A DNA stretch of 64,000 nt from Promethearchaeota archaeon (GTDB taxonomy: Archaea; Asgardarchaeota; Lokiarchaeia; Sigyniarchaeales; SOKP01), in the NCBI GenBank assembly GCA_019058445.1, contig JAHPZA010000009.1:160001-224000 (forward strand). The letters are read 5' to 3'. Below, piece by piece: positions 38,547 through 57,406 of this stretch. The notes under the pieces were generated by a model. It saw only the letters and a list, made by a program, of their open reading frames with translations, made no database searches and was not told the DNA's origin. Both the position numbers and the translations under genes were made by a program. Position 1 is the stretch's first letter, and each line of letters starts with the position of its first letter.

Positions 38547-38848
38547 TTTATTTTTACTCCTTTGATTTATATTATTATATAATAATACACTTTAATAAAC
38601 TTTTTCATACATATTTACATAGTATGAGGTAATAATATGAAAAGCCAATAATAATCGTTCCTCATTTTATATTGTATGAATCTCTCTTAGAATCTGTTAT
38701 TTACCTTATAATTTTATTATTAATATTTTGTCTTTCAATTTGAATTAAATTATAAAAGAATTATAATGATTCATAGTAGTATGAACAATCAATATCTTCT
38801 ATTAAGAGAAAATTACATAGCAGTATAAAATATAAAATGAATAGAAGG

Positions 38849-38956
38849 ATGGTTAAGTTGTCAAGATTAAAGGGATATAGAAACAGGAGATAGACTCTAT
38901 TTTTGTCTATAGAGGGTGAAATCCAATGATATACCTAATGATTCTTGCTAATCCAT
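38849..38956 (+). repeat. Structured dispersed element, copy 1
   Basis: GGAGA-hairpin-AGAGGGTGAAATCCAATG inside an enclosing stem. Confidence 0.65.
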
Positions 38957-39020
38957 GTAATATTTTTACCTAAGAGTATATAAATACTACTGTAGATTAT
39001 TATTATTAGACCAAAAACCA

Positions 39021-39141
39021 TGACTCCTGCCACACCCTGGATTTTTGTCTTTTGGTTAGTGTATGAAAATACACTCTGATTTTGCCCTCCTCCCCCTATT
39101 TAATTTTTAACCTTGTATTGAGGTTGAGTGGCAAGGAGTCA
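39021..39141. ncRNA. Candidate multi-stem structured RNA/DNA element
   Basis: TGACTCCTGCCAC / GTGGCAAGGAGTCA closing stem, AGTGTAT-GAAA-ATACACT and AACCT...AGGTT hairpins. Confidence 0.55.
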
Positions 39142-39235
39142 CCTTTTCAAAAAATATTTATTCAAATTCAAAAATATTTATACTAAAGACAAAACACAGA
39201 TTTCAAAAAAAATTCAATTATAGGATTTATTTAAA

Positions 39236-41047
39236 ATGGTATGCCCAATATGTGGAGAAATTAGACTCTCAGATCCAGAAAAATATTTAATTTGTCCAAA
39301 ATGCGATAACTATTGCAAAATCTATTCTCGTGAAGAAACAAGGGAGTATATGAAGAAAAAAATTAGAGAAGGATATCGTTTGTTTTATAATTTAGTTGTT
39401 CCATATAATTTAAGCAAGATTATTATAAATCTTCATAATTTTAGAAATATTTCTTTTCCTGAAGGATCTTTTTTTAGTCGTTATTTTCATTCCTCATTAG
39501 GAATTGGTTTAATTTTAAAGAAATGGGACAAATTAAATAGAATTTCCAAAAATATTGATCTTGATTCATATCTCATGTCAAATATTATAATGCGATGCAA
39601 GGATATCTACTTAGTTAAACATTATTTATTTTTTACTAAGTTTGACGGTGTAAGATTAATAAACCGTTATTCTGACAATTCTGTCGGATTTAAATATACT
39701 GAGAATTGGAAACCTTATTTAAAAAGAGCAATTCTTAATGGATCTTACCCTAATGATAATTTAGATTCTTTATTTTTAAATAAAAAAGATTTTAATTTGT
39801 TTTCAGCAGTTTTATTTAAAAATATAATATTAAAAAAATTGCATGATAAAAATCCTGATTATTATTATATTACTGATGCATTAAAGAAATTTCAAAATTT
39901 TATTTTTCATTATCCTTGGAGAGATTATTTTAAGGTTAAAAAGACACAAAAAAGCATCGATAATTATATAGAATTTTGTGATTTTTTTAAGAATAAGAGT
40001 TTTTTTTCGCGAAGAGAAATCTCTGAGATTGGAATAAATAAAAAAAAATATATCAACAATAATTGGGTTTCTTCTCCTAATAATTCAACTAATTTTCCAA
40101 TAATAATAAGACTTAAAAGAAATTGGTATATTCCAAACGTTTTGTATGATTTTTGTAGAAGCTTTTATGATCTGTACTCTTCTAAAAAGAAATCTTTTTT
40201 TCGAAGATATCAGAACGATATTGGCAGCCTTTTTGAAGATAAAGTATCTATTTTATTAAAAATATTTAATCTAGACTTATATACACCTGAAAAACCAAAA
40301 AAAAAATTAGTTCGACTCCAATATCAAGGAAAAGAATTTTTAGATATAGGAGCATTTTATCATCCCTTAAAATATTTTTTTATAATAGAATGTAAAAATA
40401 AATCATTCGTAAAAATTAGTGATTATAATCCCGTGAATTTGAATCAAAATATTCTGAGTGAATTTGAAAAATTTCGAGATCGTGATATCCCTCGTATAAA
40501 AAAACTTCTCAATACATGGGATTTAGATTATACCATAATCCCCCTTTTTTTCAATTTAGTTCCTTTAGTAGGAGAATTAGCAGATAAATCTTATTTTTAT
40601 AATAAAGATGGAATAACTATAATTCAAAATTTTGCAGAAATCTCACTCTTTATTTATCATTTACTAAAAGAAAAAGGCAAATCATTTCATGAAATATACC
40701 ATTTTCCAGAAAAATTGATGAAGGTTATTAATGACAAAAATTTTTTAAAAGATGTAGATTATAAGCATGAGCAAGATATAGGTACGTTATTAGGAGAAAA
40801 ATCTGAACGATATCTAATCATACATGGAGAATTTATTAATTTTGATGATTTAGATATAAAAAAAGAATTGAATGTTAAGACAGAGTTCCAAGGCAAGAAA
40901 ATTGACCTATCAATTATTATTCCTCCAGAATTGGAAGAATATATCAAAGATCTTAATTTATATAAAGGAGATATAATTAGTATAATTGTTTATAGGTTAG
41001 AAGAACACACATCAATCTATTTTTTAGGAAGAATTTGGAAATTATAA
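39236..41047 (+). CDS. Zn-ribbon plus PD-(D/E)XK (NERD-like) nuclease protein
   Basis: CPIC..CPKC; GSLFED, EFLDIG, IIECK. Confidence 0.7.
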   Translation: MVCPICGEIRLSDPEKYLICPKCDNYCKIYSREETREYMKKKIREGYRLFYNLVVPYNLSKIIINLHNFRNISFPEGSFFSRYFHSSLGIGLILKKWDKLNRISKNIDLDSYLMSNIIMRCKDIYLVKHYLFFTKFDGVRLINRYSDNSVGFKYTENWKPYLKRAILNGSYPNDNLDSLFLNKKDFNLFSAVLFKNIILKKLHDKNPDYYYITDALKKFQNFIFHYPWRDYFKVKKTQKSIDNYIEFCDFFKNKSFFSRREISEIGINKKKYINNNWVSSPNNSTNFPIIIRLKRNWYIPNVLYDFCRSFYDLYSSKKKSFFRRYQNDIGSLFEDKVSILLKIFNLDLYTPEKPKKKLVRLQYQGKEFLDIGAFYHPLKYFFIIECKNKSFVKISDYNPVNLNQNILSEFEKFRDRDIPRIKKLLNTWDLDYTIIPLFFNLVPLVGELADKSYFYNKDGITIIQNFAEISLFIYHLLKEKGKSFHEIYHFPEKLMKVINDKNFLKDVDYKHEQDIGTLLGEKSERYLIIHGEFINFDDLDIKKELNVKTEFQGKKIDLSIIIPPELEEYIKDLNLYKGDIISIIVYRLEEHTSIYFLGRIWKL

Positions 41048-41271
41048 ATCAGTATTAGAAATGATATTTATAATAATTATGAAGACAATAGAATAATACT
41101 CAAGAATTAAGAATATAATTTTCAAGTTCCATATCTTAAGAATTTGAATAGATATGTGATTAAATAATATAAATTAGATTAAAGAGAGAATACTATGATC
41201 TCATTTCTTATTTTATATCAATAGGAAAAATAAAAAAAATGTAAATTATTTAAGAATTCTGTTTTATTTGC

Positions 41272-42657
41272 TTACTTTTTGGTCATAAAATAATATCCTA
41301 TAATAAACTCTATTATAATTAAGAATACTTGGTTAAATGCAATTATTGGAAGAATAAACATAAGACCGCATATAGCAACCATACCATTTACTGAAATACT
41401 GGCTACAAGATCTTTGGGTAAATACATTAAGAAATTTGTAGTCTTAATTTTATCTAATTGGTCTTCAATTTTTTCAATAGTATTCAATATATCATCTGAT
41501 AATTCTTCAACACTATCTGTTATAATAGTTAGTCCACCAATAATCTCATTAAATTGACAGTTTATCCACGGTTTTATATGGTTCATCATGATCTCTTGGA
41601 TATTTATTCCAAATGCTATAGTAATTAATGCTATAGTTGATGCAAGAATAATATTCAAAAAATCTAAAGGTTGATTGCTAGAGCTGATGAATAAAGCACT
41701 TAATACGATTGTAATGATTAAAATTATTATTAATCCTATTTGCTCAAGAAGACTCTTGCTTTTCACAGTTAATGTACTTACCAAATCTGTAAATGAATCT
41801 ATTTTTGCATTAACTTTTTCCCTTAAATTTTCGACTTTTCTCGTAAGTTTTGTTACATCTTTTTTAAATTCACGTAATAGCCTTAATGTCCAATCTTCTA
41901 TATCTTTTAATCGATCTTCAACGTTTTCAATTAAATCAGGGATAATTGGCATACGAGATATGGTTCCATACATTTCAGGTATATCCACAACGAATTGTTT
42001 AGGGAGAACATCTTTAGGTTTAATTCCATAATAAACTAAAATAATATTTAAAATAATTATAAAATGTAATGGAATAGTCAATAACGTAAAAATGTAATAA
42101 AGTGAAACAAAGGTCACACTTATCATGAGAATACCTCTTACTATCCCCCCAGGTAAAATTAATGTTTCTTTTTCACGATCCTTCTTTTTATTATTATTAT
42201 TCTTATCATCTTCTTTTTTAACAAGTAACTCCCAACAGTTTTCTTTTTCAGAAAGTAATTCTTCTAATTTATCTAAGTTTATTTTTTTAGAGATTTCTTT
42301 TACCATATCTTCTTTAAGATCTTTTCTATCTTTTATTTCTGCTCTACTTTTATCTATTTCTGTTTTGATTGGACCTAGCTGCTCTTTTATCTTATTTGTC
42401 TTGTTCTTTTCACTTTCAAGTTTTTGCTTAATAGTCTCAAAATTTCTGTTAAAAAAAAGACGGATTAAAAGTAAAAGTATTATGGAAATTATTATATATA
42501 CAATTAGAGCTATAAGATGTGGCATATAACTCTGAAAAAGAAACATATAAAATATTAACCCAGCAACTATAACATTCGAAATAATCCAAGTATATGTAAA
42601 AGTATTTTTTGACTTCTCTCTTCTTTTTAAATCAATATCTGAACTTTTACTAGACAT
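41272..42657 (-). CDS. Membrane protein with alternating TM hairpins and coiled coils
   Basis: Four TM pairs; LPGGIVRG and LPKDLVAS internal repeat. Confidence 0.6.
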   Translation of the reverse strand: MSSKSSDIDLKRREKSKNTFTYTWIISNVIVAGLIFYMFLFQSYMPHLIALIVYIIISIILLLLIRLFFNRNFETIKQKLESEKNKTNKIKEQLGPIKTEIDKSRAEIKDRKDLKEDMVKEISKKINLDKLEELLSEKENCWELLVKKEDDKNNNNKKKDREKETLILPGGIVRGILMISVTFVSLYYIFTLLTIPLHFIIILNIILVYYGIKPKDVLPKQFVVDIPEMYGTISRMPIIPDLIENVEDRLKDIEDWTLRLLREFKKDVTKLTRKVENLREKVNAKIDSFTDLVSTLTVKSKSLLEQIGLIIILIITIVLSALFISSSNQPLDFLNIILASTIALITIAFGINIQEIMMNHIKPWINCQFNEIIGGLTIITDSVEELSDDILNTIEKIEDQLDKIKTTNFLMYLPKDLVASISVNGMVAICGLMFILPIIAFNQVFLIIIEFIIGYYFMTKK

Positions 42658-43122
42658 CTAAAATACCCTCTATTTATTATTCAAATATGAACTTTGGAAA
42701 TTAAATTGAATTTTGAAGATTTTTGTAAAATTTTAGTACTTAAAATATTACAAAATTGTTATTTAAACTTTTTGAACTATAAGAATCAAAAATAACAATA
42801 TCTTATCTGTAAATAATTATTCAACTCCTTCTTAGTTTTAGACTAATTTAACAGTGTGAATTAATATTAAATATCAGCAATAAATAATATAAGGAAAATT
42901 CTTTCATAATTAACTAAAAGACAGAATTTATTTTTTTGATTTAAGACTAAATTCATAATTTTTTATGAAAAAAGCTGTCTAAAATCTTTTTAGTGGATCA
43001 AATAATGAGCTCATATAATCTACTTACATTGAAAATCGTATTAGATGAAGTTTAATGTAAAAATATTTAAAAACATGTACTTCATTTAGAGGTTAGCTTT
43101 TGATTAAAATTCCTTTAATAAA

Positions 43123-43509
43123 GTGTTTTATATGAGCAATGGTGAAGAAAATCAAGATGAGAGATTTTTAAGATTTCTTTCTGAAATTACAGGAATCGTC
43201 ATGGCTATTCTTATCTCTGCCTTTGTACAAATAGAGGACAGTATTAAAAACGACTCAATATATTTTTGGTATATTTTAGGTCTTCCTTGTATTTTTCTGA
43301 GTTTTATATTTTCAATTTGGGCATTCATCCTAGAAAATAGAAACGCATTTCAGAATAATGGACGTTGGTATCAAAGAATTAGTAGAAATAGGTTCTATAG
43401 GGTTATAATGGTTTTATTTATTTTGAGTTTGATTTTTTTACTCGCAATCCCTTATATAATAAGGAGTATATACTTTTGGAGTAATTTCAAGGAAATCATG
43501 TGTAATTAA
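43123..43509 (+). CDS. Small 3-TM membrane protein
   Basis: Hydrophobic helices. Confidence 0.6.
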   Translation: MFYMSNGEENQDERFLRFLSEITGIVMAILISAFVQIEDSIKNDSIYFWYILGLPCIFLSFIFSIWAFILENRNAFQNNGRWYQRISRNRFYRVIMVLFILSLIFLLAIPYIIRSIYFWSNFKEIMCN

Positions 43510-43736
43510 TAAGTAATTTAAAATGCTTATTTAATTTATTTTTTAAAAAAATCTCTAATTTTGCTAAAAATAACAACCTTATTTTATAACCTTACATTGA
43601 CTAATTTCATAAAAGATTTAGAGTTTTGTACAATTCAACAAATTTTCTTACAATACTAATATTGTTGTCTAAGGGCGGGAGTCATCTTTTTTCTATTCTA
43701 TTCTTAATTAAATAAATATAAATCTAAAAATAGAAA

Positions 43737-43846
43737 AAGAAAGGAATCCAAATTCAATCAGAAAAGCAAAAAAAGAGAGAGTTAAACTTCTTAAAAGTCT
43801 AACAGGGCGAAATCCAATGTAAGACTGAATTTTTTGATTCTTTCTT
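43737..43846 (+). repeat. Structured dispersed element, copy 2
   Basis: GAGAGA-hairpin-AGGGCGAAATCCAATG inside an enclosing stem. Confidence 0.65.
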
Positions 43847-44133
43847 ACTTAAACAAATAGAGGTAAAATTAATAAATTTACTGTATTTCTTTCTTTCAAA
43901 TTCTTTTTAGATCCGATTGAATTCTCTCCCTAATTTTTTGGGGAATGTCTATTGTCTCTTGAACTTTCGACTTTGGTTCTACCATTAAATCCTAATCTGC
44001 TTCTAATATGAATTGAATAAACACGTAAACACTAGCATAAAAAAGAAGTAAAAATGAAGATTGTATCAAGACAACATATCATAAAAAATAAAATTATAAA
44101 AAAAAAGTGAGATGAAATCTCACATTAAATTAG

Positions 44134-44577
44134 TTATTTTGGGGGATAAATCCTAAATTCCCCTTTAATTATATCAAATGGAATCCTATGAGTGTATAAC
44201 CACAATTCTGAGGGAATCAAATCCATATGATCTCGGAAAGTATCATTAGTCAGGATTGGGCAATCATCCTGGATGGCCTTTAATATGAGTAAAATATCGG
44301 CCTCTATCCCTTGAGGGGCTTCCAGTATGATCCTACGCCTTAAATAATATTCATAAGAAGGGCGATAGTCAATACAATAATATAATTCCCAATCAGCGAT
44401 TCCTGTAATATAATAATCATATTTTAAATTATTATACATTAGATTGATATTTTTAATTTTAGGGGGATTTTCATCATAATGCCCTGCGACATTAGAAATA
44501 TCTGAAAGTAATTTTGGCTTTGCTTTTCTCACCTTGAGTAAGTGATTTACGCATTGAAACCCCCTATATGCAAACAT
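44134..44577 (-). CDS. Zc3h12a/Regnase-like NYN (PIN) ribonuclease domain protein
   Basis: DISNVA, IAD, ADILLILKA...ILTNDTFRDH. Confidence 0.75.
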   Translation of the reverse strand: MFAYRGFQCVNHLLKVRKAKPKLLSDISNVAGHYDENPPKIKNINLMYNNLKYDYYITGIADWELYYCIDYRPSYEYYLRRRIILEAPQGIEADILLILKAIQDDCPILTNDTFRDHMDLIPSELWLYTHRIPFDIIKGEFRIYPPK

Positions 44578-44979
44578 CTGTACTGTATAACAATAAAATT
44601 TCTAACTATTTATGCAATATATCTTTTTCTTCCTATCTCACTCACTCACGGTTAATATTCTTAAAAAAGAGTATAATATCCTATATCTTCCCTATATCTG
44701 CTCAACAATCACTATACCATGCAGCTTTCTACCAATGAGGGGCCAATGCAGTTGGTCTTATAATAGACCTACATAAATGTAAGAAATCGTCTTTTATAAG
44801 TTTTGTTAAAATGAGTTATTTTCTTAATTTTTATCTAATTTTTGAAGATTGGAAAAAAGTGAATTTTTAATGCCTAATGTGAAATAGAGGAGCTCATGAA
44901 TTGAAAGAGTTATGAAGGATATATCTTTTTATGGATTAAATCCATAAAATGAGCTATTATTTTATTTCCAATGTTGGAT

Positions 44980-45750
44980 TTATAACTTCAATATCTTTAT
45001 TATATCTTCCTTAGTGGTTAATCTTGTATGAGAACAATCTCTAGTCCAAGAGGTAGTTGGGATATATGAGGTATTCTTACTATATAGTTTTTTTTTAATC
45101 ATATAATGTGTTCCTACTTCGTAATTTAATTGAATTAGGTAATTTCGATAAAATCCATCTTTTTCGCTTAGTGAGATCTCAACTGAGCCCTCTATTCTTA
45201 TATAATATTCTATAAAATCTAGATTTATTTGAGGGGTGATATAATTATTAAGAGCTTGGAGAAAGGGTTGCTCATCTATCTTCTCTATGTTGGTAATTTT
45301 ACCATTGAATTTATCGTTTTCTTCCCCAACTCCAATTTGAAGGAAAGCCACTCCTAAATTCTTTTCTTTTGTTTTATTATTTACTAAACTGAGCACATCT
45401 TTAATGAATTCGGCTTTTTGTTCTTGTTTTCGCTTTTTATCTAGAGAAATTATATCATACATTTGTGATTTGAAATCTAAAAACTCGCATTCTCGCTCCT
45501 CCAACAATTTTTTGATTAATTCCTTCTTTTTAAGTCTAGGAATTTTTCTGTATTTACCTGGAATCCTTAAATTCAAAAGATACGAACTAGTAATATATAC
45601 TATTGCCCCGAAGAATATAATTCCAAATACCAATAAGAATAATTGAATGTCGGGGTTCAACCTTATTATCATTGGATATGCTGCTATTGTTCCAATGGAA
45701 AAAAAAATAACAAAACACCCCATACATTTTTTAAAATTTGTTAATTTCAT
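44980..45750 (-). CDS. 2-TM anchored Schlafen/AlbA_2 domain protein
   Basis: ECEFLDFK, EFIKDVLSLVN, LQIGV, ITPQI. Confidence 0.75.
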   Translation of the reverse strand: MKLTNFKKCMGCFVIFFSIGTIAAYPMIIRLNPDIQLFLLVFGIIFFGAIVYITSSYLLNLRIPGKYRKIPRLKKKELIKKLLEERECEFLDFKSQMYDIISLDKKRKQEQKAEFIKDVLSLVNNKTKEKNLGVAFLQIGVGEENDKFNGKITNIEKIDEQPFLQALNNYITPQINLDFIEYYIRIEGSVEISLSEKDGFYRNYLIQLNYEVGTHYMIKKKLYSKNTSYIPTTSWTRDCSHTRLTTKEDIIKILKL

Positions 45751-46100
45751 TTGGACACCACATTCCCTTTGATTATTTTATAACTATAAGGAATCTTAGC
45801 TTAATAAATGATTTGGAACTATGGGATTATGTTCTAAATTGGAAAGTGCGATCCCATCCCCTTTACCATCTTCTTAATTAAAGAGGGAAATGCTATAAAG
45901 CACCATTTATCAGCTTCTTAATTACATAAGAAAATAATGGGAGATTTAATGAGTGCAGATATTATAGATCTTCGTCGACTAAATCCAAATATCAAAATTA
46001 TATAAAATAATTAATAGCAATATTTCTAAAAAGGCTAATTTTTATATGAGAATATCCTAATTAATATTAGCCAAAAAGTTCAAAATCGAGTTTAATAATA

Positions 46101-46712
46101 ATGTCAAATCAAGAGAAAATAGATTCATACCTTAACAATTTTGAAGTAAGATTAAATGAAGAGAAAAAATATAGTGGTTTAATAATTGCTTCCTCATTTT
46201 CAATGATGATTTTGTTACTTACTTTTATTTCTAATAGAGATTTTATTTTAGATCTTGGTATAGGTGCTATAATTCTCTCGATTTTTTTTCAATATTATAT
46301 ATTTAGAAAAGCTCCCCTAAATATAAAGAGTTTTAAAGAAATCGATGAAGCATTACAATTCAGTTTCAGAGAAATGAAAATAAGAGAAATTTGTCATTTG
46401 TTAGGAGAATATTTCTTTTTAATAAGTATTGCTTTAATATTGTCTTTTTTTAAATTATTTATTTATAGCTTTTTTTTAATTTTAGTTATAATATTAAAAG
46501 AACTAAAAAATATAATTAATGATTCGAAATATTTTAAACTTAATCGTGAATTTAAGGATCTTGGTGTTCCTATAGGTTCGGAGGATTATTTAATAATAAA
46601 ACACAACCTCTCTATTATTAAGATTACTTTTTTATTAAGTTCTTTTCATTTAATATTGAGTGCGTATTTTGTAATCTTATTACTTGACTACGGTTCAATT
46701 ATGTCTTTTTAG
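46101..46712 (+). CDS. Multi-TM hypothetical protein
   Basis: Four to five hydrophobic segments. Confidence 0.6.
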   Translation: MSNQEKIDSYLNNFEVRLNEEKKYSGLIIASSFSMMILLLTFISNRDFILDLGIGAIILSIFFQYYIFRKAPLNIKSFKEIDEALQFSFREMKIREICHLLGEYFFLISIALILSFFKLFIYSFFLILVIILKELKNIINDSKYFKLNREFKDLGVPIGSEDYLIIKHNLSIIKITFLLSSFHLILSAYFVILLLDYGSIMSF

Positions 46713-46835
46713 GCAACATAAATTAACTTTTATGAATAATATTTTTAAATAAACATTAAATTTACCTTTTCCTTTATTGAGATATTGATATGATACAATA
46801 TCTTGTAGAAAGAGATATTTTGAAAGTGTAGAACA

Positions 46836-47870
46836 TTAAAAATATTTAACAATTGCTTTAAACGCGGGTTCAAGTATTGAAAAAGAATCTTCATCTAGTA
46901 GACCTATATTAGAAATTCGTTTTTCATATTCCTGAAGATGAATATAATTTCTATAATCTCTAAAAATATTCTGTGCAATACCCCATTCTGTATCTTTTCC
47001 TATTTCAAAAGAGAAATTACTACCTGCAGTTTCGAGATAATAACACATCTTATCAAAAAATGTAGCCTTAGTTAAAGATTTACTATTAGAGATTTTTGAA
47101 TGATTAATTCTATTAATATTCTTATTTTCCAACCATTTTGTTAAGAGATATTCTAATATTGAGCCCATTTTAATACATGCATCTTTCCAATAGCCAAGTT
47201 TGATTAGGTCAACGATTGATTTATGCTCTTGTAAAACTAATTTTCGATTAGTGATAAATTGCTTTTGAAATAATTCATTAGAAGACTCATAAAATTTGAG
47301 GGATATTTCTTTTAATTTAGGATTAAATTCAATTAAAAACTTATCTTGGATATTTAGATTACAACAATAAAGAGAAATTAAAATTGCTGACAATATAGAA
47401 AGATAAAATCCGCTTTGGAGTTCAAAATTATATAATAAAAATTTTGTTGTAGGATTATTAGGAAAATCAATTAAAAATGGAAAAAATACACCACCTAATA
47501 ACCATATTAAACTTCCAGCTAGCAATAAAATAGAGGAAAATATCAATGAATATTTTTTTAACTTTATTTCTTCTAGTATAAAGTGTGAAAAATAAACAAA
47601 ACATCCAATTAGATAAATAATCAATCCCGCAACCAATCCATAAATGTTAAAGCTAACAAAATAAATTGGATCAATAGGAAAGAAAAATTCTGAATGATAA
47701 AACTTAGAGGAAGTTGTCCAAATTGGATTAAATTTTAAAACTCTCATAACTTTTTGACCATATAATTCTCCATAGATAACAATTTCAACCCACGGTAAGC
47801 AAAAACTTGAAATTAAACAACCAATAATGATAACTTCAAAAAACAAATTTATTCCTCTTAATTTTTTCAT
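46836..47870 (-). CDS. 4-TM protein with C-terminal HEPN (DUF4145-like) domain
   Basis: ACIKMGSILEYLL, RDYRNYIH. Confidence 0.7.
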   Translation of the reverse strand: MKKLRGINLFFEVIIIGCLISSFCLPWVEIVIYGELYGQKVMRVLKFNPIWTTSSKFYHSEFFFPIDPIYFVSFNIYGLVAGLIIYLIGCFVYFSHFILEEIKLKKYSLIFSSILLLAGSLIWLLGGVFFPFLIDFPNNPTTKFLLYNFELQSGFYLSILSAILISLYCCNLNIQDKFLIEFNPKLKEISLKFYESSNELFQKQFITNRKLVLQEHKSIVDLIKLGYWKDACIKMGSILEYLLTKWLENKNINRINHSKISNSKSLTKATFFDKMCYYLETAGSNFSFEIGKDTEWGIAQNIFRDYRNYIHLQEYEKRISNIGLLDEDSFSILEPAFKAIVKYF

Positions 47871-48030
47871 TGTACTACCCTGATTAAGATTAAATTATTA
47901 GTTTTCTATAATTATATTTAAAATATCCTTTTTAAAATAAATTGACAAAAAATTATTAATCTATGAAAAAATAATAGGTCTTTTCCTAAATCTAATGTTT
48001 TTATAATCATTTAAATTATATAATCCTAAA

Positions 48031-49509
48031 ATGAAAGAATTAAATTATGAGAAATTTATAGAATTCTGTAGAAAAAAAATCAAAGAAGGTAAATTTTTTG
48101 AAAAAGTATTAGGGATATATTATATTATTACTGCCATATTTTTATCTTCTTTATATTATTCTTTAGATTTTTTAATTTTTGTAACAATTCTTCTCATATT
48201 TACATTATCATTTATAGGGCCTTTAGTAATAATAGGTATAAGATTTAAGTTTCCTTGGAAAAAGAATGTTAAAAATTATAATGAAAAATTCTATAGAGAA
48301 GTAAAAATACTTTTTTCTGGAAATATACTAGATGATAAGAATTCTTTAGAGAGTTGTAGGTCATGGTTTTCTAAAGCTAGAATTTTTGATGGAATAAAAT
48401 TTAGTGGCTATATTCTTAGCATATTTCTATTAGTATATTACATTTTGTTATTAATAGAAATAGTTATATTGAATTTTTCAATGATTTATGTTGAAAAAAA
48501 TACAAATTTTATTTTCAAATTCCTCTTCAATCCTTTTTTAAAATATTATATATTTTGTTTAACATGGTTCTTATTGTTTAACATTACAGAACTATATATT
48601 AATCGATTAAAATTAACAATTGATGATATTATCAGAGAAGCTTATAATGATATTGAAGATAAGAATGATAATATTTTCTCTATTTTAAATAATCCAGATT
48701 CCATTAATTATGAAGATCTTCAAAAAGATATAAAAACAGAAATAATTAACATCCAGAATCTTTATTCTTTAAATATTCTTAAAGTATTAAAAAAATCAGA
48801 ACATCGATTTAAGCTAAAATATTTATATAAACAATTTAAAGTGGGGGGTAGATTTGATCTCATTAAAATAATAAACAGTTATTTAAAGTGTATTGAAATT
48901 ATCAATTCTAAAAATGAAGATTTTGAATATTATGACGTTTTCTATAATTATTCAACTATTTTAGCTAAATTAAAAAAAGAAATTATATTAGAGTCAGAAA
49001 GTATCATAAATGAAACTAAAGACTATTTAAATGAGTATAAAGAAGTAAGAGTTAATAAAACGGATATAAGAGAAAAAAAGAACACAATTAATAATCTAAT
49101 TAGTGATTTTGAATTAACAATTCGACAATTTATTAAAAATCAATTAAAAAAACATTTTAGTGAAGATTGGTGGAATCAAGGTATCCCCTCAAAAATACGA
49201 AAAGATGCTGAAGTCCTTAAATCAAAAAAAGAAATAATTGAACCTAAAAGAACATATCAAGTTATAGATTTTCTCACATTTATGGATTACTCTAATATTA
49301 TTTTAAATAAAAAGAATTGGAATAACATCTTCAGTGATTTTTTTAATCAAAAATACATCTTTCAAGCACCATTCGAAAAGTTAACATATATTAGGAATGA
49401 TCTTGCTCATAATAGATTTATAGAAGATGATTTTGAACGATGCAAAACTTATATTAAAGATATTTTGAAATATATACCAGATTTTAATCGGAACTGTATA
49501 TTAAATTAA
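48031..49509 (+). CDS. 4-TM protein with C-terminal Swt1-like HEPN domain
   Basis: FELTIRQFI, DWW..GIP, NW..IFSDFF, IRNDLAHNR. Confidence 0.78.
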   Translation: MKELNYEKFIEFCRKKIKEGKFFEKVLGIYYIITAIFLSSLYYSLDFLIFVTILLIFTLSFIGPLVIIGIRFKFPWKKNVKNYNEKFYREVKILFSGNILDDKNSLESCRSWFSKARIFDGIKFSGYILSIFLLVYYILLLIEIVILNFSMIYVEKNTNFIFKFLFNPFLKYYIFCLTWFLLFNITELYINRLKLTIDDIIREAYNDIEDKNDNIFSILNNPDSINYEDLQKDIKTEIINIQNLYSLNILKVLKKSEHRFKLKYLYKQFKVGGRFDLIKIINSYLKCIEIINSKNEDFEYYDVFYNYSTILAKLKKEIILESESIINETKDYLNEYKEVRVNKTDIREKKNTINNLISDFELTIRQFIKNQLKKHFSEDWWNQGIPSKIRKDAEVLKSKKEIIEPKRTYQVIDFLTFMDYSNIILNKKNWNNIFSDFFNQKYIFQAPFEKLTYIRNDLAHNRFIEDDFERCKTYIKDILKYIPDFNRNCILN

Positions 49510-49735
49510 GACGGAAAAAGATAAACAAAAACCAGTAATTTATGATTTAGGAATATCTTTTACGAGAGATGGTTCTTATACGAGATTAATTACTCAAGAT
49601 GATAGAAAAAAAATAATGAATCTAAAAAAAAGACATAACTTTTAATTGACTTTATTTATTTTTTAAAGAATTTACACTCTACTTATGATTAATTGCTTTT
49701 CATTATAGATTCATAAAATAGCTTTATTTTTCTAT

Positions 49736-51352
49736 TTATATTGGACTCACTTTTTCAATTATCCTTTTAATAAATCTTTTACCAATAAGTTTTATACAGA
49801 TACCTATGAACTGTTTCCGATTTATTCTACCTTCTTTGTAGTCTTTATATGCATCTTTAATCTTTTCCCAGTCAGAAGCAAGATGATCTACTAAGTATGC
49901 TTCTAAATCATCAACTTTATCAAAAATTTGTTCTATTTGTAGCGTATATTCTTTAATTAACTCTGTATCGCTCTTGATATCATCTAATTTTTCACTGAAA
50001 TCTCTTAATATCTCTGTAATTTTTTCTGTTTTGTCACTCATTGCCTTAATAATAATTTCTGAACTATCACCTACTTTATTTAGAGCAACAGATAATGCAA
50101 CATCCTGCTTGTCGTACAAACCTTGAGCATAGGCTTCGATTAACTTGAAATTATCATTCTGAATAGCATGTATTTCTTGAAGCAACTTAAAGTTACATCT
50201 CTTAATGATATTTTCTATTTCTGACTCTAAATTAATGATATCAATATCACTTTCAATAATTAGCTTTTGATCCTCCATAAATTGGGTTTTTTGGTCAAAT
50301 TCTTGCTTGCTTATCTGTTTAGGAATTAATAAATTGCATACATAACAAATTTTAAATGGTTCAATAAAACTAGACCGTGTTCTTCCACTGGGATCCATAT
50401 ATGTTACCATTCCTTCTATAGAATCACCCACACAACTTTGTGTTGCTATTAATTTGAAAGTTGGACTCTCAAAAGAATTTGGTTTTAGTAAATTGATTTT
50501 AGACCTATCTTTTTTTACTAATAAACCTGCAGGAGTTTGAGTTAATAAAATTTGAATATTATTTATTACTAATTTGGAGTTATTCTTTATCTTCACTTTA
50601 TAATAGAAAATGCTTTGATTACCTTCAATTTTCCAGTCTCCTCCGCGTAAAACTTCAATATCCTTCATATTAAAGTCCGTTGATATATCTTGAGATTCAA
50701 TAAAATTTTTATCCTGTGTGGATATAGATGATTCCATAAAAGAATAATCTCTCTTTTCCTTATTAAAACTAATGCAATATTCTATATCTATAATTTCTGG
50801 AGCATTATCTCTTAATGGGTATAATTCTTTAACTGCATTTAAAATAAGGGCATTATCTTCTTCTTTTAATTCTCTTAACTTTTCAGTATATTCAATAGGT
50901 GAATAAATTTCAAATGTACTAATAATGGAATGTAGTCTACTTCCAAAGGATGATGATTCTCTGACATTAGAATGAGATTGAAAAAGTAATCTAGATAAAT
51001 CTTCTCGACCTCTGTATTTTAGTATTTGTCTGATTTTTTCAATATCATTTTCAATTTCTTTTGAGATTATCTTTTTTTCTTTTAAAATAGGTTTAAAAAA
51101 TTCTAGATATTCTTTTAGAACTTTATTCCTAGATCTATGAAAATATCCATATGTATTCCAATTTGGTGTAAAAGAATTATTGGTTTTAATAATTTCCTCT
51201 AAAATTTGTAATGTTAAAGATAGATTTTCAAAATTAATATCATCTTCGTTAATACCATAATCACTAAGATTAAATTCTATTGGTAATCTTAAAAATTCAA
51301 TAATTTCTCTTTTGAGACCTCCAAACTTTAGTCGAGTTTCTTTTTCAATCAT
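49736..51352 (-). CDS. Multidomain protein with possible adaptin-appendage-like Ig/platform region
   Basis: RGGDW..YKVKIKN..CVGDSIEGMVTY beta-rich block followed by an alpha/beta block and coiled coil. Confidence 0.45.
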   Translation of the reverse strand: MIEKETRLKFGGLKREIIEFLRLPIEFNLSDYGINEDDINFENLSLTLQILEEIIKTNNSFTPNWNTYGYFHRSRNKVLKEYLEFFKPILKEKKIISKEIENDIEKIRQILKYRGREDLSRLLFQSHSNVRESSSFGSRLHSIISTFEIYSPIEYTEKLRELKEEDNALILNAVKELYPLRDNAPEIIDIEYCISFNKEKRDYSFMESSISTQDKNFIESQDISTDFNMKDIEVLRGGDWKIEGNQSIFYYKVKIKNNSKLVINNIQILLTQTPAGLLVKKDRSKINLLKPNSFESPTFKLIATQSCVGDSIEGMVTYMDPSGRTRSSFIEPFKICYVCNLLIPKQISKQEFDQKTQFMEDQKLIIESDIDIINLESEIENIIKRCNFKLLQEIHAIQNDNFKLIEAYAQGLYDKQDVALSVALNKVGDSSEIIIKAMSDKTEKITEILRDFSEKLDDIKSDTELIKEYTLQIEQIFDKVDDLEAYLVDHLASDWEKIKDAYKDYKEGRINRKQFIGICIKLIGKRFIKRIIEKVSPI

Positions 51353-51685
51353 AATCTTTTCTAATTAATAATAAAGTAAATAATATATATTAGCATAATT
51401 GAAATTAAGTTCTTTGATGGTGAATCCACATACTTCCCTTACCCTATATCGACTATGAACTTATCAGTTCTATAAAAAGGGGTTTCCCTCAATTTTATCT
51501 TTAAATAAACTCCAATTTTATATTAGTTTTACAAGTTCTTTTCTTAATATTAATTATTTTAATAAATTTACATGGTGTTAATGATAAATAAAAAAGAGAG
51601 AATTATAACAGAGATTATCCCATAAAATTTATTTAAATAGTCGTTTTTCCTTCTTTTTAGTAACAGTTAATAAATTAAATTTAAG

Positions 51686-51940
51686 ATGATAAAGCTGAAA
51701 GACGATTATAAATATCTTTTTGGTTTGGGAATACGCTCGTTCTATGATGCTATAAAATCAGATTTGAAAACAGATGAAAATGAATCTGCTTTTGATTTTG
51801 TTGAATCAATAGGAAAAGAGATTAGGAATGAACTAGAGAATAATCCTAAATATCAAAAAATCTATCAGGGAGCAGATTTAGCACGAAAAGCAAAAGAATT
51901 TGCAGATGAGCTTGAAAAATTATTCTCGGATTTCTTCTAG
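51686..51940 (+). CDS. Small hypothetical protein
   Basis: 84 aa helical ORF. Confidence 0.5.
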   Translation: MIKLKDDYKYLFGLGIRSFYDAIKSDLKTDENESAFDFVESIGKEIRNELENNPKYQKIYQGADLARKAKEFADELEKLFSDFF

Positions 51941-51960
51941 AAACCCATTTAATAAAGAAC

Positions 51961-52188
51961 TTATAGAAAGCTCATCTCATAATAATCTTTCTTTATTTTC
52001 ACTTTTTCTAAGATCGGTTTCAATTTCTCATCTATGTAGGTTTCGATTTTCCGAATAATCCTTTCATCCAACTCCTCTAATTCTGCATCTTCTATAATAC
52101 TTTCCTTACTATTAACTATAATCCTATAAATTACAGAAAGAAAAAGTATATAGAAATCGAAGCTGCATAAATTTTTAATTTTCAACAT
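51961..52188 (-). CDS. Small hypothetical protein or gene remnant
   Basis: 75 aa ORF. Confidence 0.35.
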   Translation of the reverse strand: MLKIKNLCSFDFYILFLSVIYRIIVNSKESIIEDAELEELDERIIRKIETYIDEKLKPILEKVKIKKDYYEMSFL

Positions 52189-52236
52189 ATCATGTAGATA
52201 TTACCCTATTAAAAGAGCTGAAAGAAAGAGACCTGA

Positions 52237-52493
52237 TTAAATATTAAAATATCTCAAATCATTAACGGGAAAGAACATAATTTAGCTTCAGAAGATGTAA
52301 ATAAGCTAATAGAATTTCAACAATTACGGAATGTTTATGCTCATGGTGATGGTACAATTACTCAAAATTATCTTGATAAAATTCCGAATTCTAATTTCAA
52401 GCTAGGTTAGCGACTAGAAATATCTCAAGAAATATTACTAAAGAGTTATTATATAGTAATAAAAACTATCAATAATTTAATAAAGCATTTATA
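52237..52493 (+). pseudogene. Degraded HEPN-domain gene
   Basis: LIEFQQLRNVYAHGDGTITQNYL...FKLG*RLEIS; in-frame TAG at 52408-52410; no start. Confidence 0.65.
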
Positions 52494-52559
52494 GAGAAAT
52501 ATCCTGAAATAATTTCCAATAAAAATAATTTGTGAAAATTATTAACTTGGTTTGAAAAT

Positions 52560-53498
52560 ATGATCCCTATTAATTCATTTCCAATTTGGAGAAAATTTTT
52601 TGATTTTAAGAAATACTCCGAATTGGTTGATAATAGTATTATTCAAATTACTGAAGACTTTAATGCAAGATATAAATTTATTGAAAAAGAAAACGCAAAA
52701 GATATTTTTTGGAAATTAGCAACATTGCAGAAAGAATTAGATCCGAATAATTGTTATGATATTTTTGCGTTATTTATTGGAAGAATGCTATTCTATGAAA
52801 TTCTTAAAAAAGAAAAAAGTAATGTTGAAGAACAATATCAAATCCATAAAGAATGGTTTGAATATATATCTAGACGAATCAAACCTCATGTAGCAAAATT
52901 ATCTGAAAAATTTTTACGGATATTATTCTCTTATTACCCCGCTGGAGATATTACAGAAGGAGTTTCGAAGTTAGAAATGACAAAAGATATGATTGAAGAA
53001 TTTGATATTCTTAATGTCCTCGTGAATCCAAGAATAAATGCATATAAAAAAGTTCGGGCTTTTAAAGAACAATATATGAACTTTTATGATCTCTTTTTAG
53101 ATCGATGTAAGTTAATTGGTGATGAACTGTCTAGATATGAAGGAAATAGGAAAGTTGGTAGATATGGAAAGGATCCTTATAACATTTTCCAATTAAGAAA
53201 TAATAATCAATATACACCTCCAGATTTTATCAAAGATATGATAATTGAACTTGTCCATATAAGAAATGCTTGTGCTCATTTGGGGATAACAGTCTTAAAC
53301 GAAAATGAAGTACAAATTATTGATAGATATCCTAATGGTGAAATAAGCTTTAATGAGACAGTTCAAATAAAAGATTTAATCATATATTTTATTAGATTAT
53401 TTTCACTTGATAAAGAATTTGAGAATTTAGCATTACTAATATATATAATTGGCTGGTTAAATGAAATAAGCCTAAAGAGAACTGAAGAGTCTAAATAA
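52560..53498 (+). CDS. HEPN-domain protein
   Basis: IRNACAH motif. Confidence 0.65.
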   Translation: MIPINSFPIWRKFFDFKKYSELVDNSIIQITEDFNARYKFIEKENAKDIFWKLATLQKELDPNNCYDIFALFIGRMLFYEILKKEKSNVEEQYQIHKEWFEYISRRIKPHVAKLSEKFLRILFSYYPAGDITEGVSKLEMTKDMIEEFDILNVLVNPRINAYKKVRAFKEQYMNFYDLFLDRCKLIGDELSRYEGNRKVGRYGKDPYNIFQLRNNNQYTPPDFIKDMIIELVHIRNACAHLGITVLNENEVQIIDRYPNGEISFNETVQIKDLIIYFIRLFSLDKEFENLALLIYIIGWLNEISLKRTEESK

Positions 53499-53578
53499 CT
53501 TTTATTATAAGGTTTTCTAAAAAGGTATTCACAGTATCCCAACAGTTATCTTAGAATTTTTCCCTTAATTCTCTTTTT

Positions 53579-53821
53579 TCAAATAATTTTTAAATCGGAT
53601 TTGATACTCTTTCTAATTTTTTGAAGAAGATCTATTGCTTCTTGAACTTTCGATTTAGCTTGTACCGTTAAATCCTTATCGGCTTTCAAATTAAATAAGG
53701 TCATGTTGGGAATGTCTTTTCGCAATTCGTTTAAATTTTCCATTATCATATCGACATTTTCAATTTCTTCAATTAGTTGTTTTTTGGTAATAATATGACT
53801 TTTAGTTATTCTTTCAATCAT
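53579..53821 (-). CDS. Small helical hypothetical protein
   Basis: 80 aa ORF. Confidence 0.5.
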   Translation of the reverse strand: MIERITKSHIITKKQLIEEIENVDMIMENLNELRKDIPNMTLFNLKADKDLTVQAKSKVQEAIDLLQKIRKSIKSDLKII

Positions 53822-54175
53822 TTCTTAATATTCTAAATTTCCTATGTTTACAAGAATATCTAAAAAAACCTATTTAAAGTAAGAATTAGAAATAAGAATA
53901 GTTCATAGAGGTATGTAATGTTGAGTATCAATTTATTGGAAAATACTTGATATATCTATAAAATATTAAATTAGATGATCATAGAATAAAGATAGACAAT
54001 AATTTATCGGTAAATTTTAGGACTTGTCTAATTATTGCTTTTATCCCTTCTATTATCAATATAATACACTTTTTTTGTATTAATTTTACGGGTATCAATT
54101 TCAATACAGTAACTAAAAAAATAATTCAAAAGGTTATGGATTTTTTTTTAAATAGTCACTCTTATTTTTATTAGA

Positions 54176-55561
54176 ACCTTTAGGGATATTTCATCAATAA
54201 AATATCAAAATCAAATAAAATTATTAGCAGAAAAATTAAGAATAAAGCCCTTACCTAAAAATATCTTGAATATTGAAATATCTGCACTTTTTTTTTACCA
54301 AGCAAAAGAAGTTTATTTAAAGAATAATGGTAAAATTTTCTTTGTAATAACCAAAGGAGTGATAACAGGTTCCCATACTTCTCGTTTTCGCAATTTTAGA
54401 GGATATAAAAACGTTAAAATATGGAGCTTTGAACCCCGGTTAGAGAAATTGTTCAATATTGGTTTCATCTGCTTATTTGCCCAGAAATCAGAAAATACCT
54501 CAAAACTTTACAATAAAAAAATTACACATTTTCACGTTGAATTAAAAAACGAAGCTTACCAGATTGAATATTTTAGTAAGTTGGAATTGAAAATTGTAGA
54601 GAAAGATGTATTATTACCTTATTTTATTGAGAAAAGAGGAAAGAAAATCTTTACAAAGAAACTCATTCCACAAAAATTGTCTAAGGATCTTTTACCATAT
54701 GCTGAAAGTGTATATAAAAAATTGTTTCATAAGGGGGCAGATATAAATCCCAGAAATCTCATATTTGTGAACTATGAAGAAATTGAAGATAATTTAATTA
54801 AAATAAACCCAGATAAAAGAATATTTAAGAGAGCTAAAGCTCCATGGAATCTGAAAGAGTTCAATGATGAAATTGTAGAGAAAAAATATATTTTTAAAGT
54901 TATCAAAAGCACGGAGTTAGTTAAATTTCAAGTATTTGACTATTATAATGTTTTCTTACCTCTTTCTAATGGAAATTTTAATTACGATTATAATGAATTA
55001 ACTGATAATGCTAAGCGTTTTTATAATAAAATCAATCAGGTTTATTTAAAAAAAAAGAAATCTACCACAAAACATTCATCACTTTTAGAAAATCTTAATC
55101 GATGGTCGAAGTTGATAAATCAGCGTCAGCAATCGAAAATAAAATGTGTATATAATAATTCGGGATCAATTTTGAATTCTGCAGTGGTTTTAGGAGATTT
55201 TTTAGTAACCGGGGATTTATCTTTTTATGATACAGATAGCCTTGATGAAGCTTATTATTTGTCATCAATATTAAATTCAAATTTAATGCAAAAGCAAGTT
55301 AAAATAAGAAAGAGTTCCAGACATATTTTTAAAATTCCCTTTGAAATTCCAATTGAAAAATATAATACACACAACAAAAATCATAAGCATTTAGCAGAGA
55401 TTGGAAAGCAGTGTCAAAAAATTGCAGAAAAAACAACAAAAAAGTTGATGTTAAAGAGTTCTCATAATATTTCAAAGATTAAACTTCAAAAGGCACTTAA
55501 AAACAGATTAAATCCTCTTCTAACGCAAATAGATGAGATATTAAAATTAGAGTTTAACTGA
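54176..55561 (+). pseudogene. C-terminal half of the interrupted N6-MTase (rest of catalytic domain plus TRD)
   Basis: Reads TFRDISSIKYQNQIKLLAEKL..., LKNNGKIFFVIT, EAYYLSSILNS; lacks SAM-binding motif I and NPP. Confidence 0.85.
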
Positions 55562-55639
55562 TTAATATTTCTAAGGGGATTCTGTAGAACGAATGATTAA
55601 AAATACCAAAATTAATAAAATTAAATCATTATTAATTAC

Positions 55640-56188
55640 ATGAGTACTCATCAAAACGGGGATCTATTCATGAATAAATTTTTTCTGTTCAAAATACTTA
55701 TCGGTGGCGATGCAAGTGTAGGTAAAACGACACTGTTGCGCAGATTCGTAGATGGCATGTTTGATGAGAGCACCATTATGACTGTGGGTGTTGATTTTTT
55801 TATAAAACAAATGAGTTTCGACGGTGTGAATTGTGCACTTCAACTCTGGGATTTAGGCGGTCAAGAACAATTTAGGCATCTTATGTCTAGTTATGTAATG
55901 GGGGCGAGGGGCGCATTACTTTTAATAGATTTAACTCGAATGCCAGAATTGAATAGAGTGTTAGAATGGGTAAATATAATTAGAATGCACGATATCGATC
56001 TTCCGATAATACTCGTAGGAACCAAATTAGATCTCGAGGAAATGATAGCGATAGATGATGAAATAGCCTTAAACATCAAGGACACATTTAATATGATTGA
56101 TTATGTAAAAACTTCTTCTAAAACTGGGCACAATGTTGAGAAAGCATTTAAAATAATGGCTGAAAGGTTGATTCATATTAAAGAGTAG
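55640..56188 (+). CDS. Rab-like small GTPase
   Basis: GDASVGKT, TVGVDF, WDLGGQE, GTKLD, TSSK; no C-terminal Cys prenylation motif. Confidence 0.93.
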   Translation: MSTHQNGDLFMNKFFLFKILIGGDASVGKTTLLRRFVDGMFDESTIMTVGVDFFIKQMSFDGVNCALQLWDLGGQEQFRHLMSSYVMGARGALLLIDLTRMPELNRVLEWVNIIRMHDIDLPIILVGTKLDLEEMIAIDDEIALNIKDTFNMIDYVKTSSKTGHNVEKAFKIMAERLIHIKE

Positions 56189-56295
56189 TAGAAATTTCTT
56201 TATTCAAGTTTTATTCTATGATTTAAAATCATAAAAATTATTTTCTTTAAACCCATTCAATTTAAATATACAAAAAAAACTTAAAAATTCGCATT

Positions 56296-57105
56296 ATGGA
56301 AGATGAAATAGTTATTCTTGGTTCTGGTGGGGGTAGACATCATATCAGAACGCAACATAGAGCTACCGGAGGGATATTATTCAAATTTAACGGTATTCAA
56401 GCTCATATAGATCCAGGACCAGGTGCAATAGTGAGATTAAATCAATACCATGAAGATCCGACGAAAACAGAAATGTTTATCGTAACGCACGTTCACATAG
56501 ATCATTTCAACGATTTAAGCGCAATTATTGAATCTTCCCGGGAATCTCTTCACGATAAAAAGTATGATTACTTCAGAAAGGGGATTTTACTTACTACGAA
56601 TGAAACTTTAAGATATGTTTCTGACTATCATTTAAATATGCTTGAAAAGGTCGTTCCTTTTAAAGCTGGAGATATCTTTCATTATAAAGGTGTAAAAATA
56701 ATTGGAACAAAAGTTTTACATTCACCAAAAAATGAAGGATTTGGCGTAAAATTCAATTTACAGGATTATTCAATTGCTTTTTCGAGCGATACAATGGTTT
56801 TTGATGGTTTTTCAGAGCAATTTTCAGGTGCAAATATCTTAATATTAAATTTATTAAGACCAGACTCAGTTACTTGCAAGCGACATTTATGCACAGATGA
56901 GGTTATTCCATATTTGAATAAATTAGAACCCTGTCTTGATGCTCTCATCATCACTCATTTTGGATCTTATATGGATGGACCACGATCTGAAAGAAATCAT
57001 GTTCCTAGTCAAGTGAAAAAATTTAAAGAGAAAACTAAAATAAAAAAAGTAATCCCTGCCGAAGATGGATTAAAAATTAAAATTTCTGATTTACTAAATA
57101 AATAA
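56296..57105 (+). CDS. Metallo-beta-lactamase fold hydrolase (RNase Z-like)
   Basis: LGSGGG, IDPGPG, THVHIDH, SSDT, ITHF. Confidence 0.9.
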   Translation: MEDEIVILGSGGGRHHIRTQHRATGGILFKFNGIQAHIDPGPGAIVRLNQYHEDPTKTEMFIVTHVHIDHFNDLSAIIESSRESLHDKKYDYFRKGILLTTNETLRYVSDYHLNMLEKVVPFKAGDIFHYKGVKIIGTKVLHSPKNEGFGVKFNLQDYSIAFSSDTMVFDGFSEQFSGANILILNLLRPDSVTCKRHLCTDEVIPYLNKLEPCLDALIITHFGSYMDGPRSERNHVPSQVKKFKEKTKIKKVIPAEDGLKIKISDLLNK

Positions 57106-57235
57106 AATCTAATTTTACATGAAATTTCTTTCTGAAATCGTCTTGAAAATTACCTTCTAAATGTGAGTACTATAAGAACATAAAATGAAATAATAATTGT
57201 ATCTTTTTATATTAAGATACTTATATGTAATCAAG

Positions 57236-57357
57236 GAAGGGAAATTACGTAATGATTAACAGGTCAAAACATTGGATTTCGCCCTCTATTAAACTCAATG
57301 GAGTTTAATTCTCTCCCTAATTTTTTACATAAATAGGCCTGCTTTTCGCTACCCTTC
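57236..57357 (-). repeat. Structured dispersed element, copy 3
   Basis: GGGAGAGA-ATTAAACTC catt GAGTTTAAT-AGAGGGCGAAATCCAATG, closed by GAAGGG/CCCTTC. Confidence 0.7.
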
Positions 57358-57406
57358 ACTTTTTTTCTTAAAAATAAATTAGTGTCTTAAGAGAGTTAAT
57401 CACATT

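Follow-up and report, generated by a model that had tools for sequence, protein, structure and literature searches.

What is the element that occurs three times in a 64,000-nucleotide (nt) window of the genome of a Promethearchaeota archaeon (GTDB lineage Lokiarchaeia; Sigyniarchaeales; SOKP01), each time around the same 16-base core, and what might it do in the cell? The window, by which we mean the whole stretch of DNA analyzed, is C9:160001-224000 of a 4.6-Mb genome of 31% G+C and 92.6% completeness (C numbers denote contigs; the genome is G000 in our genome codes, and relatives carry codes such as G008 and G019). The core, AGGGYGAAATCCAATG, lies at 38913-38928 and 43804-43819 on the plus strand and at 57270-57285 on the minus strand of the window; three matches were found where 0.05 are expected, and none of 100 shuffles reached three. 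Our analysis indicates that the three elements are predicted genes of an undescribed small non-coding RNA family belonging to one uncultured Asgard archaeal family. As to their role, we favor, with a probability of roughly 0.45, a reading in which they are trans-acting sibling RNAs, with a pyrimidine-rich internal bubble as the active site that would pair with purine-rich RNA.

Each core, in the orientation given, is preceded by a hairpin whose sequence differs from copy to copy and yet remains paired (38890-38910, 43781-43803, and 57288-57309), and a long outer stem of ∼20 to 25 bp closes off each element by pairing sequence ∼60 nt upstream of the core with sequence 10 to 40 nt downstream, so that the whole element measures ∼115 to 140 nt. 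An initial annotation of this DNA had described both the hairpin of changing but pairing sequence and the downstream strand that pairs with the upstream flank, and both hold in all three copies. Its three core sites are likewise real, although the end coordinates were 2 nt off for copies 1 and 3, and the GRGA(GA) that it placed before the core holds for the copies in the window but not for every copy of the genome, the one at C6:689867 reading AAAGAT.

A covariance model was seeded from one copy with a hand-drawn structure and was then rebuilt from nine copies of the genome. MAFFT plus RNAalifold applied to the raw copies recovered no structure because that alignment was not structural. The genome encodes eight copies with at most one core mismatch, a ninth with a diverged core (C1:91746-91868), and one weak candidate, and the copies are spread over four contigs. 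Among 100 relatives searched with the model, 52 of 60 same-family genomes gave a match and none of the 40 from other families did; in a class-wide sample, the figures were 111 of 126 same-family genomes and 0 of 24 from other families. Copy number in the family ranges from one to nine per genome, and in genus g8 of the same family the search detected the RNA in none of five genomes. An exact 21-mer of the conserved sequence around the core, hereafter the box, was scanned over 185,579 species genomes and matched at least 118 stretches; among the matches listed, all were from Promethearchaeota (Asgard) metagenome-assembled genomes, and no viral contig matched. The putative family is strongly conserved and specific to one lineage.

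The predicted structure was assessed in an alignment of 106 members from 53 genomes fitted to the covariance model. All 27 modeled pairs changed on both sides, 89.6% of the cells were paired (65.8% in shuffles), and the covariation score was 0.538 compared with at most 0.117 when partners were slid. The apical hairpin, P2 (helix 4), shows double changes in nine of nine pairs and is 93.7% paired, and covarying variants of the inner stem are visible by eye (AACCAGAAU/AUUCUGGUU, CACUCGAC/GUCGAGUG, and AAUGCCAAUC/GAUUGCAUU). Although fitting an alignment to a model favors the structure of that model, the margin for the predicted pairs is large. No known RNA class accounts for the element: Rfam 15 returned nothing at gathering score over the whole 64-kb window, and permissive scans of all three copies returned only noise (E ≥ 1; 12.7 to 18 bits against cut-offs of 56.8 to 122). 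The core string was found in no paper, and our literature search found no relevant paper on an Asgard small RNA (sRNA). The possibility, raised by the initial annotation, of an unnamed family of structured non-coding RNA is supported: the family covaries and is missing from Rfam 15.

The strand from which the RNA is read is most likely opposite to the one initially proposed. TATA motifs resembling TTTATATA (at most one mismatch) accumulate upstream of the 5′ edge of the reverse strand, with 45 in the −30 to −21 bin, whereas on the originally proposed strand they are flat at 3 to 9 per 10-nt bin. Runs of five T residues starting at the 3′ edge number 80 on the reverse strand and 8 on the other. 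Where the closing stem has an isolated transition mismatch, it is a G-U pair in 64 cases on the reverse strand and in 18 on the other (13 and 3 unique contexts, respectively), and the closing stem is more stable on the reverse strand in 69 of 93 members and on the other in 24. Because TATA boxes, T-run ends, and G-U asymmetry are three independent signals, the RNA strand is most likely the reverse complement of the original reading; the window would therefore have copies 1 and 2 on its minus strand and copy 3 on its plus strand, and the conserved RNA sequence would be CAUUGGAUUUCGCCCU rather than AGGGCGAAAUCCAAUG. Two analogies in the initial annotation fall with this change because they were read on what is most likely the wrong strand, the one without promoter and terminator signals: the likeness of GG-GYGAAAU-CC to a T-loop, for which neither cmscan nor ARAGORN (no tRNA-like gene in 38000-58000) gave support, and the likeness to a glycine aptamer, which Rfam did not support. 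The TATA box and oligo-U end of an independently transcribed archaeal sRNA gene are both present and on one strand only, and from them we infer transcription itself.

From 5′ to 3′, the predicted RNA, whose TATA box lies ∼25 nt upstream, consists of the 5′ strand of the closing stem, which often starts GAAGG, the box AACAUUGGAUUUCGCCCUCU, P2, the sequence UCUCUCC(C)U, a U-rich stretch, the 3′ strand of the closing stem, and CUUUUUC followed by a U-tract. P2 has the consensus AUUAAACUC-N4-6-GAGUUUAAU, in which the sequence is kept and compensatory variants are present. The U-rich stretch is variable (12 to 20 nt) and contains a run of at least four U residues in 51 of 67 members, and a shorter isoform may arise from such an internal U run. 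Approximately 55 contiguous nt, including the sequence of P2, are nearly invariant across 12 genera and among paralogs. In alignments of the family the box is invariant while the stems drift, and three 98-nt variants (L088, L091, and L110) have lost P2 and kept the box and the closing stem, which points to the box as the functional part. Many members are preceded by an imperfect palindrome 45 to 75 nt upstream of the RNA and 15 to 25 nt before the TATA box, of the TGTT..AACA or GTTC..GAAC type, such as TGTTC-N5-9-GAACA (e.g., L060, L076, L081, L090, and L104). A strict form of the pattern is found in 22 of 104 members and in 0 of 104 and 0 of 103 sequences from two control regions, and the palindrome looks like a candidate site for a dimeric regulator.

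Copy 3, identified by covariance-model match and by synteny, occupies 57233-57366 on the plus strand and ends in a U7 tract at 57360-57366. A TATA box (TTTTTATATTA, 57204-57214, plus strand), located by the positional TATA enrichment of the family, lies ∼24 nt before the closing stem and is itself preceded by an imperfect palindrome of the TGTGA..N9..GAACA type (57162-57182, plus strand), a candidate regulator site. The invariant 5′ strand of the bubble, AACAUUGGAUUUCGCCCUCU, is at 57266-57287 (plus strand) and is the reverse of the core as initially read; in the other two copies the same box is found on the minus strand, at 38913-38928 and at 43804-43819. It is followed by the P2 hairpin AUUAAACUC-AAUG-GAGUUUAAU (57288-57309, plus strand), with equivalents at 38890-38910 and 43781-43803, and by the 3′ bubble strand (57310-57333, plus strand), made up of the conserved UCUCUCCCU and then the variable U-rich tract.

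The other two copies are on the minus strand. Copy 1 (38843-38961, C9:198843-198961), a covariance-model match, has the most divergent outer stem and the box CAUUGGAUUUCACCCU, and its ortholog in a congeneric genome (L107) has a decayed core. Its TATA box, TATTTATATA (38977-38986, minus strand), is ∼25 nt upstream and was recognized by the family-wide positional enrichment. Copy 2 (43733-43853), also a covariance-model match, folds into a closing stem with the bubble and P2 (z = −2.1) and has a TATA-like sequence, AAATTTATTAA (43869-43879, minus strand), ∼28 nt ahead of the start of its closing stem; it is a predicted young paralog of the copies at C9:384739-384862 and C1:55117-55240. Facing copy 2 is a 28-nt relic of a further copy (AAAATTAGGGAGAGAATT, 43913-43940, minus strand), the rest of which is gone. 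Local duplication seems to be the growth mode of the family because same-orientation gene pairs occur in several genomes. Five relatives carry such pairs, ∼280 to 310 nt from start to start (G008:C53:142-549, G023:C56:13749-14167, G012:C80:32541-32972, G007:C13:2687-3074, and G031:C168:1026-1442), and a pair in the genome under study is ∼1.3 kb apart (C6:688474-689942). Another relative, G019, has four copies with identical scores on contigs C16, C42, C64, and C76, at least one of them (on C16) at a contig end, and these go back to a recent burst within a segment that is itself repeated, or else to a repeat of the assembly.

A second, likewise undescribed family of structured sRNA displays the same box. 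One member of ∼125 nt (39018-39143, plus strand) lies head to head with copy 1, and the AT-rich block at the copy 1 TATA box is near-palindromic and also stands ∼35 nt before this divergent RNA. The genome has five to six copies, including those at C1:∼55270-55400, C1:∼72610-72740, C4:∼351050-351180, and C6:∼874880-875010. They have their own TATA box, a covarying outer stem (variants GACUCCUGCCAC/GACUCCUCGCGC/AACUCCGGUAUC), and two internal hairpins; the fold is far more stable than that of shuffled sequences (z = −5.6), and Rfam gave no match. The second family presents a single-stranded CU-rich box, CUGAUUUUGCCCUCCUCCCCCU, related to that of the first family (GAUUUYGCCCUC), and this 22-mer was found with at most three mismatches in 31 of 60 same-family genomes. 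In genera g2 and g11 the second-family box has the sequence GAUUUCGCCCUCC, identical to that of the first family. Because two unrelated scaffolds display the same sequence, the box is probably the functional element. It resembles the 3′ end of the organism's 16S rRNA, the anti-Shine-Dalgarno end, which reads GGAUCACCUCCU (GGAU..CCUCCU).

The setting of copy 3 bears on the origin of the family. The copy starts ∼130 nt past the stop codon of a gene for a metallo-β-lactamase (MBL)-fold hydrolase (PF12706; 56296-57105, plus strand), a distant RNase Z-like protein scoring far below the family cut-off, and this gene is preceded by that of a Ras-like small GTPase (55640-56188, plus strand) from the same conserved neighborhood. 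In 47 other genomes, from nearly all genera, the 3′ end of the orthologous MBL-fold gene has an sRNA copy at a distance of 70 to 520 nt, so that the adjacency holds in at least 48 genomes including the one under study, and orthologous copies are syntenic across genera whose neighboring proteins are only 65 to 80% identical. The RNA is co-directional with the MBL-fold gene in eight of nine loci examined in detail and inverted in genera g3 and g4. Because the adjacency is kept while the orientation flips, copy 3 can be recognized as the ancestral copy, inherited vertically, and as a separate transcription unit. Four of five genomes of the genus without the RNA likewise carry the MBL-fold gene, and a search for a divergent copy 3′ of it in that genus and in a sister family gave a best E value of 0.15 with filters off. 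The GTPase and MBL-fold genes stand together beside the sRNA in 7 of 37 loci compared, from four genera.

How might such RNAs act? In the reading that we favor, the copies would be separate genes, each with its own TATA box, often a palindromic site before it, and an oligo-U end. Their RNAs, ∼115 to 135 nt long, would fold into a long closing stem of free sequence and, beyond it, a large internal bubble topped by a hairpin of 9 bp, and the bubble would hold the invariant pyrimidine-rich box, with AACAUUGGAUUUCGCCCUCU as its 5′ strand and UCUCUCC(C)U as its 3′ strand. The copies would act in trans as sibling regulatory RNAs, with the box as the business end that pairs with purine-rich, Shine-Dalgarno-like RNA segments; both the action in trans and pairing as its mode are what we infer from this design. 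Since the bubble strands flank a hairpin, the two could clamp one continuous target stretch and form a three-way junction with it. The U-rich tract beside the box would presumably suit an Sm/Lsm chaperone as a binding site.

Families of sibling sRNAs are known from bacteria, among them Qrr1-5 of Vibrio, LhrC1-5 of Listeria, and the csRNAs of streptococci. The archaeal RNAs resemble them in having several paralogous genes per genome with their own promoters and a shared upstream site of regulator type, and in an identical single-stranded sequence among paralogs while the remainder drifts. They differ in being archaeal and without sequence relation to the bacterial RNAs, and in the position of the shared sequence, which is not in a 5′ tail or hairpin loop but in an internal bubble closed by an end-to-end stem of ∼25 bp. 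C/U-rich sRNAs of the anti-Shine-Dalgarno kind include RNAIII and RsaE of Staphylococcus, with their UCCC loops, and sRNA41 of Methanosarcina mazei. With these the archaeal RNAs share a pyrimidine-rich single-stranded motif that resembles the 16S 3′ end and could occlude purine-rich ribosome-binding sites, but here the motif is split over two strands that flank a hairpin, and sites complementary to the box are not enriched.

A genome-wide scan for complements to both bubble strands jointly, scored by the number of matches, gave one outstanding site. The sequence AGGGAGAGAA-U-GGGCGAAAUC-AUGUU in the mRNA of an actin paralog (C6:647867-647892, minus strand) scored 20 of 20, a perfect complement of 10 + 10 (+5) nt with one U left unpaired; the next scores, of 18, were antisense sequences of second-family genes, and the background did not exceed 17. 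In 131 genomes, the exact pattern was found elsewhere only in the ortholog of the nearest relative. The paralog, at locus L258 (C6:646372-649390), is an intact gene for 379 aa present only in this genome and its nearest relative. Where the other actins of the family read REKMA (a few REKLA or REKMT), the paralog reads RERMG, with NREKMAEIMFE changed to NRERMGEIMFE, and both amino acid changes (K to R and A to G) add to the match with the RNA. Between the two genomes the site shows no difference, whereas over the whole gene 33% of degenerate codons do. Conserved targeting of actin was rejected, given that at most three mismatches were found in just 3 of 101 genomes. A target in 23S rRNA was also rejected: in this organism the segment in question has the sequence GGAGCAAAAGGCUAAUC and doesn't pair with the box. 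The rRNA operon is split over contig ends (16S 3′ end at the end of C6, 23S pieces at C7:∼1-60 and C1:∼204424), so that searches for rRNA targets in this genome are incomplete.

Several observations weigh against trans-acting RNAs that work by pairing. Sites complementary to the box alone (12 to 14 nt, G-U allowed) are not enriched, with 7 against 7 and 34 against 45 in the reversed control. The complementarity to actin is limited to one lineage-specific paralog, in which the identical run of 12 codons at the site is only the second longest of the gene and synonymous constraint is weak; the main actin ortholog has 4 to 10 mismatches in 33 nt, and the presence of the RNA in a genome brings no better match than is seen in the RNA-less genus. 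The ∼55 conserved nt, with the sequence of P2 among them, are more than a pairing seed needs and fit a protein-binding module equally well. The strand and the ends of the RNA are read from signals in the sequence only, internal runs of at least five U residues, found in 37 of 67 members, could stop archaeal RNA polymerase early, and the fold energies of single sequences are ordinary (z from −0.2 to −2.1).

The same RNA genes can also be understood as carriers of a protein-binding module formed by the bubble and P2, the RNA being a ribonucleoprotein scaffold or a decoy, such as one that imitates the 16S 3′ end and so titrates a factor that binds it. We consider this possible, though less probable than pairing. 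The near invariance of the ∼55 contiguous nt across 12 genera and paralogs, P2 included, speaks for it, as do the lack of enriched complementary sites, the same box in a second RNA family, and the likeness of the box to GGAU..CCUCCU of the 16S 3′ end; the conserved neighborhood with an RNase Z-like MBL-fold protein does so too, but no candidate partner has the distribution of the RNA, and the MBL-fold gene itself occurs in the genus that lacks it. The survival of variants without P2 is a further difficulty. 6S RNA and Y RNA (RF00013 and RF00019) offer a formal parallel, with ends that pair into a long stem, a large internal loop, a U-tract, and possible paralogs. In Y RNA, however, the conserved, bulged lower stem is the protein site and the loop varies, whereas here the stem varies and the bubble is conserved, and a search of the 92.6%-complete genome for the Y RNA-binding protein Ro60/TROVE (PF05731), in which positive controls matched, gave no match. 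A Vault-repeat profile had no match in the genome, but its positive control matched nothing either. 6S RNA mimics an open bacterial promoter; nothing here suggests such mimicry, and there was no Rfam match.

A more specific proposal is a two-handed clamp, in which both bubble strands would pair with one mRNA around P2, in the manner of an H/ACA RNA without the machinery, and in which the target in this lineage would be the mRNA of the extra actin, whose shifted codons give the match of 10 + 10 + 5 nt. We hold this to be doubtful. The main actin ortholog is mismatched everywhere and the paralog exists in two genomes, and for these reasons the complement to the paralog is best taken as a lineage-specific lead, not as a conserved function.

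Cis-regulatory, mobile-DNA, and H/ACA explanations are all unlikely. That the element is a riboswitch, leader, or 3′-untranslated region (UTR) element controlling an adjacent gene might be thought from the six to seven of eight genome copies that have, on the reverse strand, a co-directional gene 77 to 1,076 nt downstream, and from the one copy that always follows the MBL-fold gene. The downstream genes are, however, unrelated, as are the neighbors of the genome copies generally, every copy comes with a TATA box of its own and with a terminator right at the end of the element, one window copy lies in a convergent gap, and Rfam gave no riboswitch match; at the MBL-fold gene, moreover, the orientation is inverted in genera g3 and g4. 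Because the neighbors are unrelated, the TATA boxes are the RNA's own, and the orientation flips beside a conserved neighbor, the sRNA is probably not a cis element, and the UTR-type element envisaged by the initial annotation has little in its favor.

Slightly less probable still is noncoding mobile DNA resembling a miniature inverted-repeat transposable element (MITE), or a hairpin DNA site (the second possibility named in the initial annotation), with the outer stem as terminal inverted repeats and the core as a protein-binding DNA site. Multiple copies, inverted-repeat flanks, relic fragments, tandem pairs in several genomes, and the four identically scoring copies of G019 would all suit mobile DNA. 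The arms of the element, however, vary and covary while the interior is conserved, contrary to the pattern of a MITE (no search for target-site duplications was made), and compensatory changes maintain pairing with a G-U bias to one strand. Copy number is low (one to nine), no viral contig has the box, no transposase is nearby, and the synteny is stable in at least 48 genomes; an adjacency to the MBL-fold gene that is kept while orientation flips argues strongly against a mobile repeat.

In archaeal H/ACA RNAs, the ACA box lies 3′ of the lower stem, 14 to 16 nt from the pocket, and the upper stem contains a kink-turn or K-loop. A guide of this kind, with the bubble strands as a pocket directing modification of an unpaired U, is the least probable of all, since the two-stranded pocket flanking an apical hairpin could indeed pair one continuous target on both sides and the actin-paralog match has just this topology of a pseudouridylation pocket (one U unpaired, the 5′ half of the target on the 3′ bubble strand and its 3′ half on the 5′ strand), but no ACA box follows the closing stem (CUUUUUC and U-tracts do), that stem of ∼25 bp makes a spacing of 14 to 16 nt impossible, P2 is a plain 9-bp Watson-Crick helix with neither kink-turn nor K-loop, the pocket is identical in all paralogs whereas those of guides differ, and the Rfam H/ACA models had no match. 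Nor are the features of a C/D box sRNA conserved in the 106-sequence alignment, in which CUGA occurs in few copies and neither the C box RUGAUGA, expected near the 5′ end, nor the D box CUGA, expected near the 3′ end to form a K-turn with it, is kept.

Asgard archaea are the closest prokaryotic relatives of eukaryotes, and to our knowledge almost nothing is known about their regulatory RNAs. The predicted genes described here make up a well-defined RNA family that is strongly selected and has promoters of its own, a box shared with a second family, an ancestral locus, and a candidate regulator site. Covariance models of the two families would fill several apparently empty intergenic gaps in each genome. 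If the clamp on the extra actin mRNA were true, it would mean that an Asgard archaeon controls its cytoskeleton at the level of RNA. More generally, the binding partner of the GAUUUCGCCCUC box would reveal a lineage-wide regulatory circuit.

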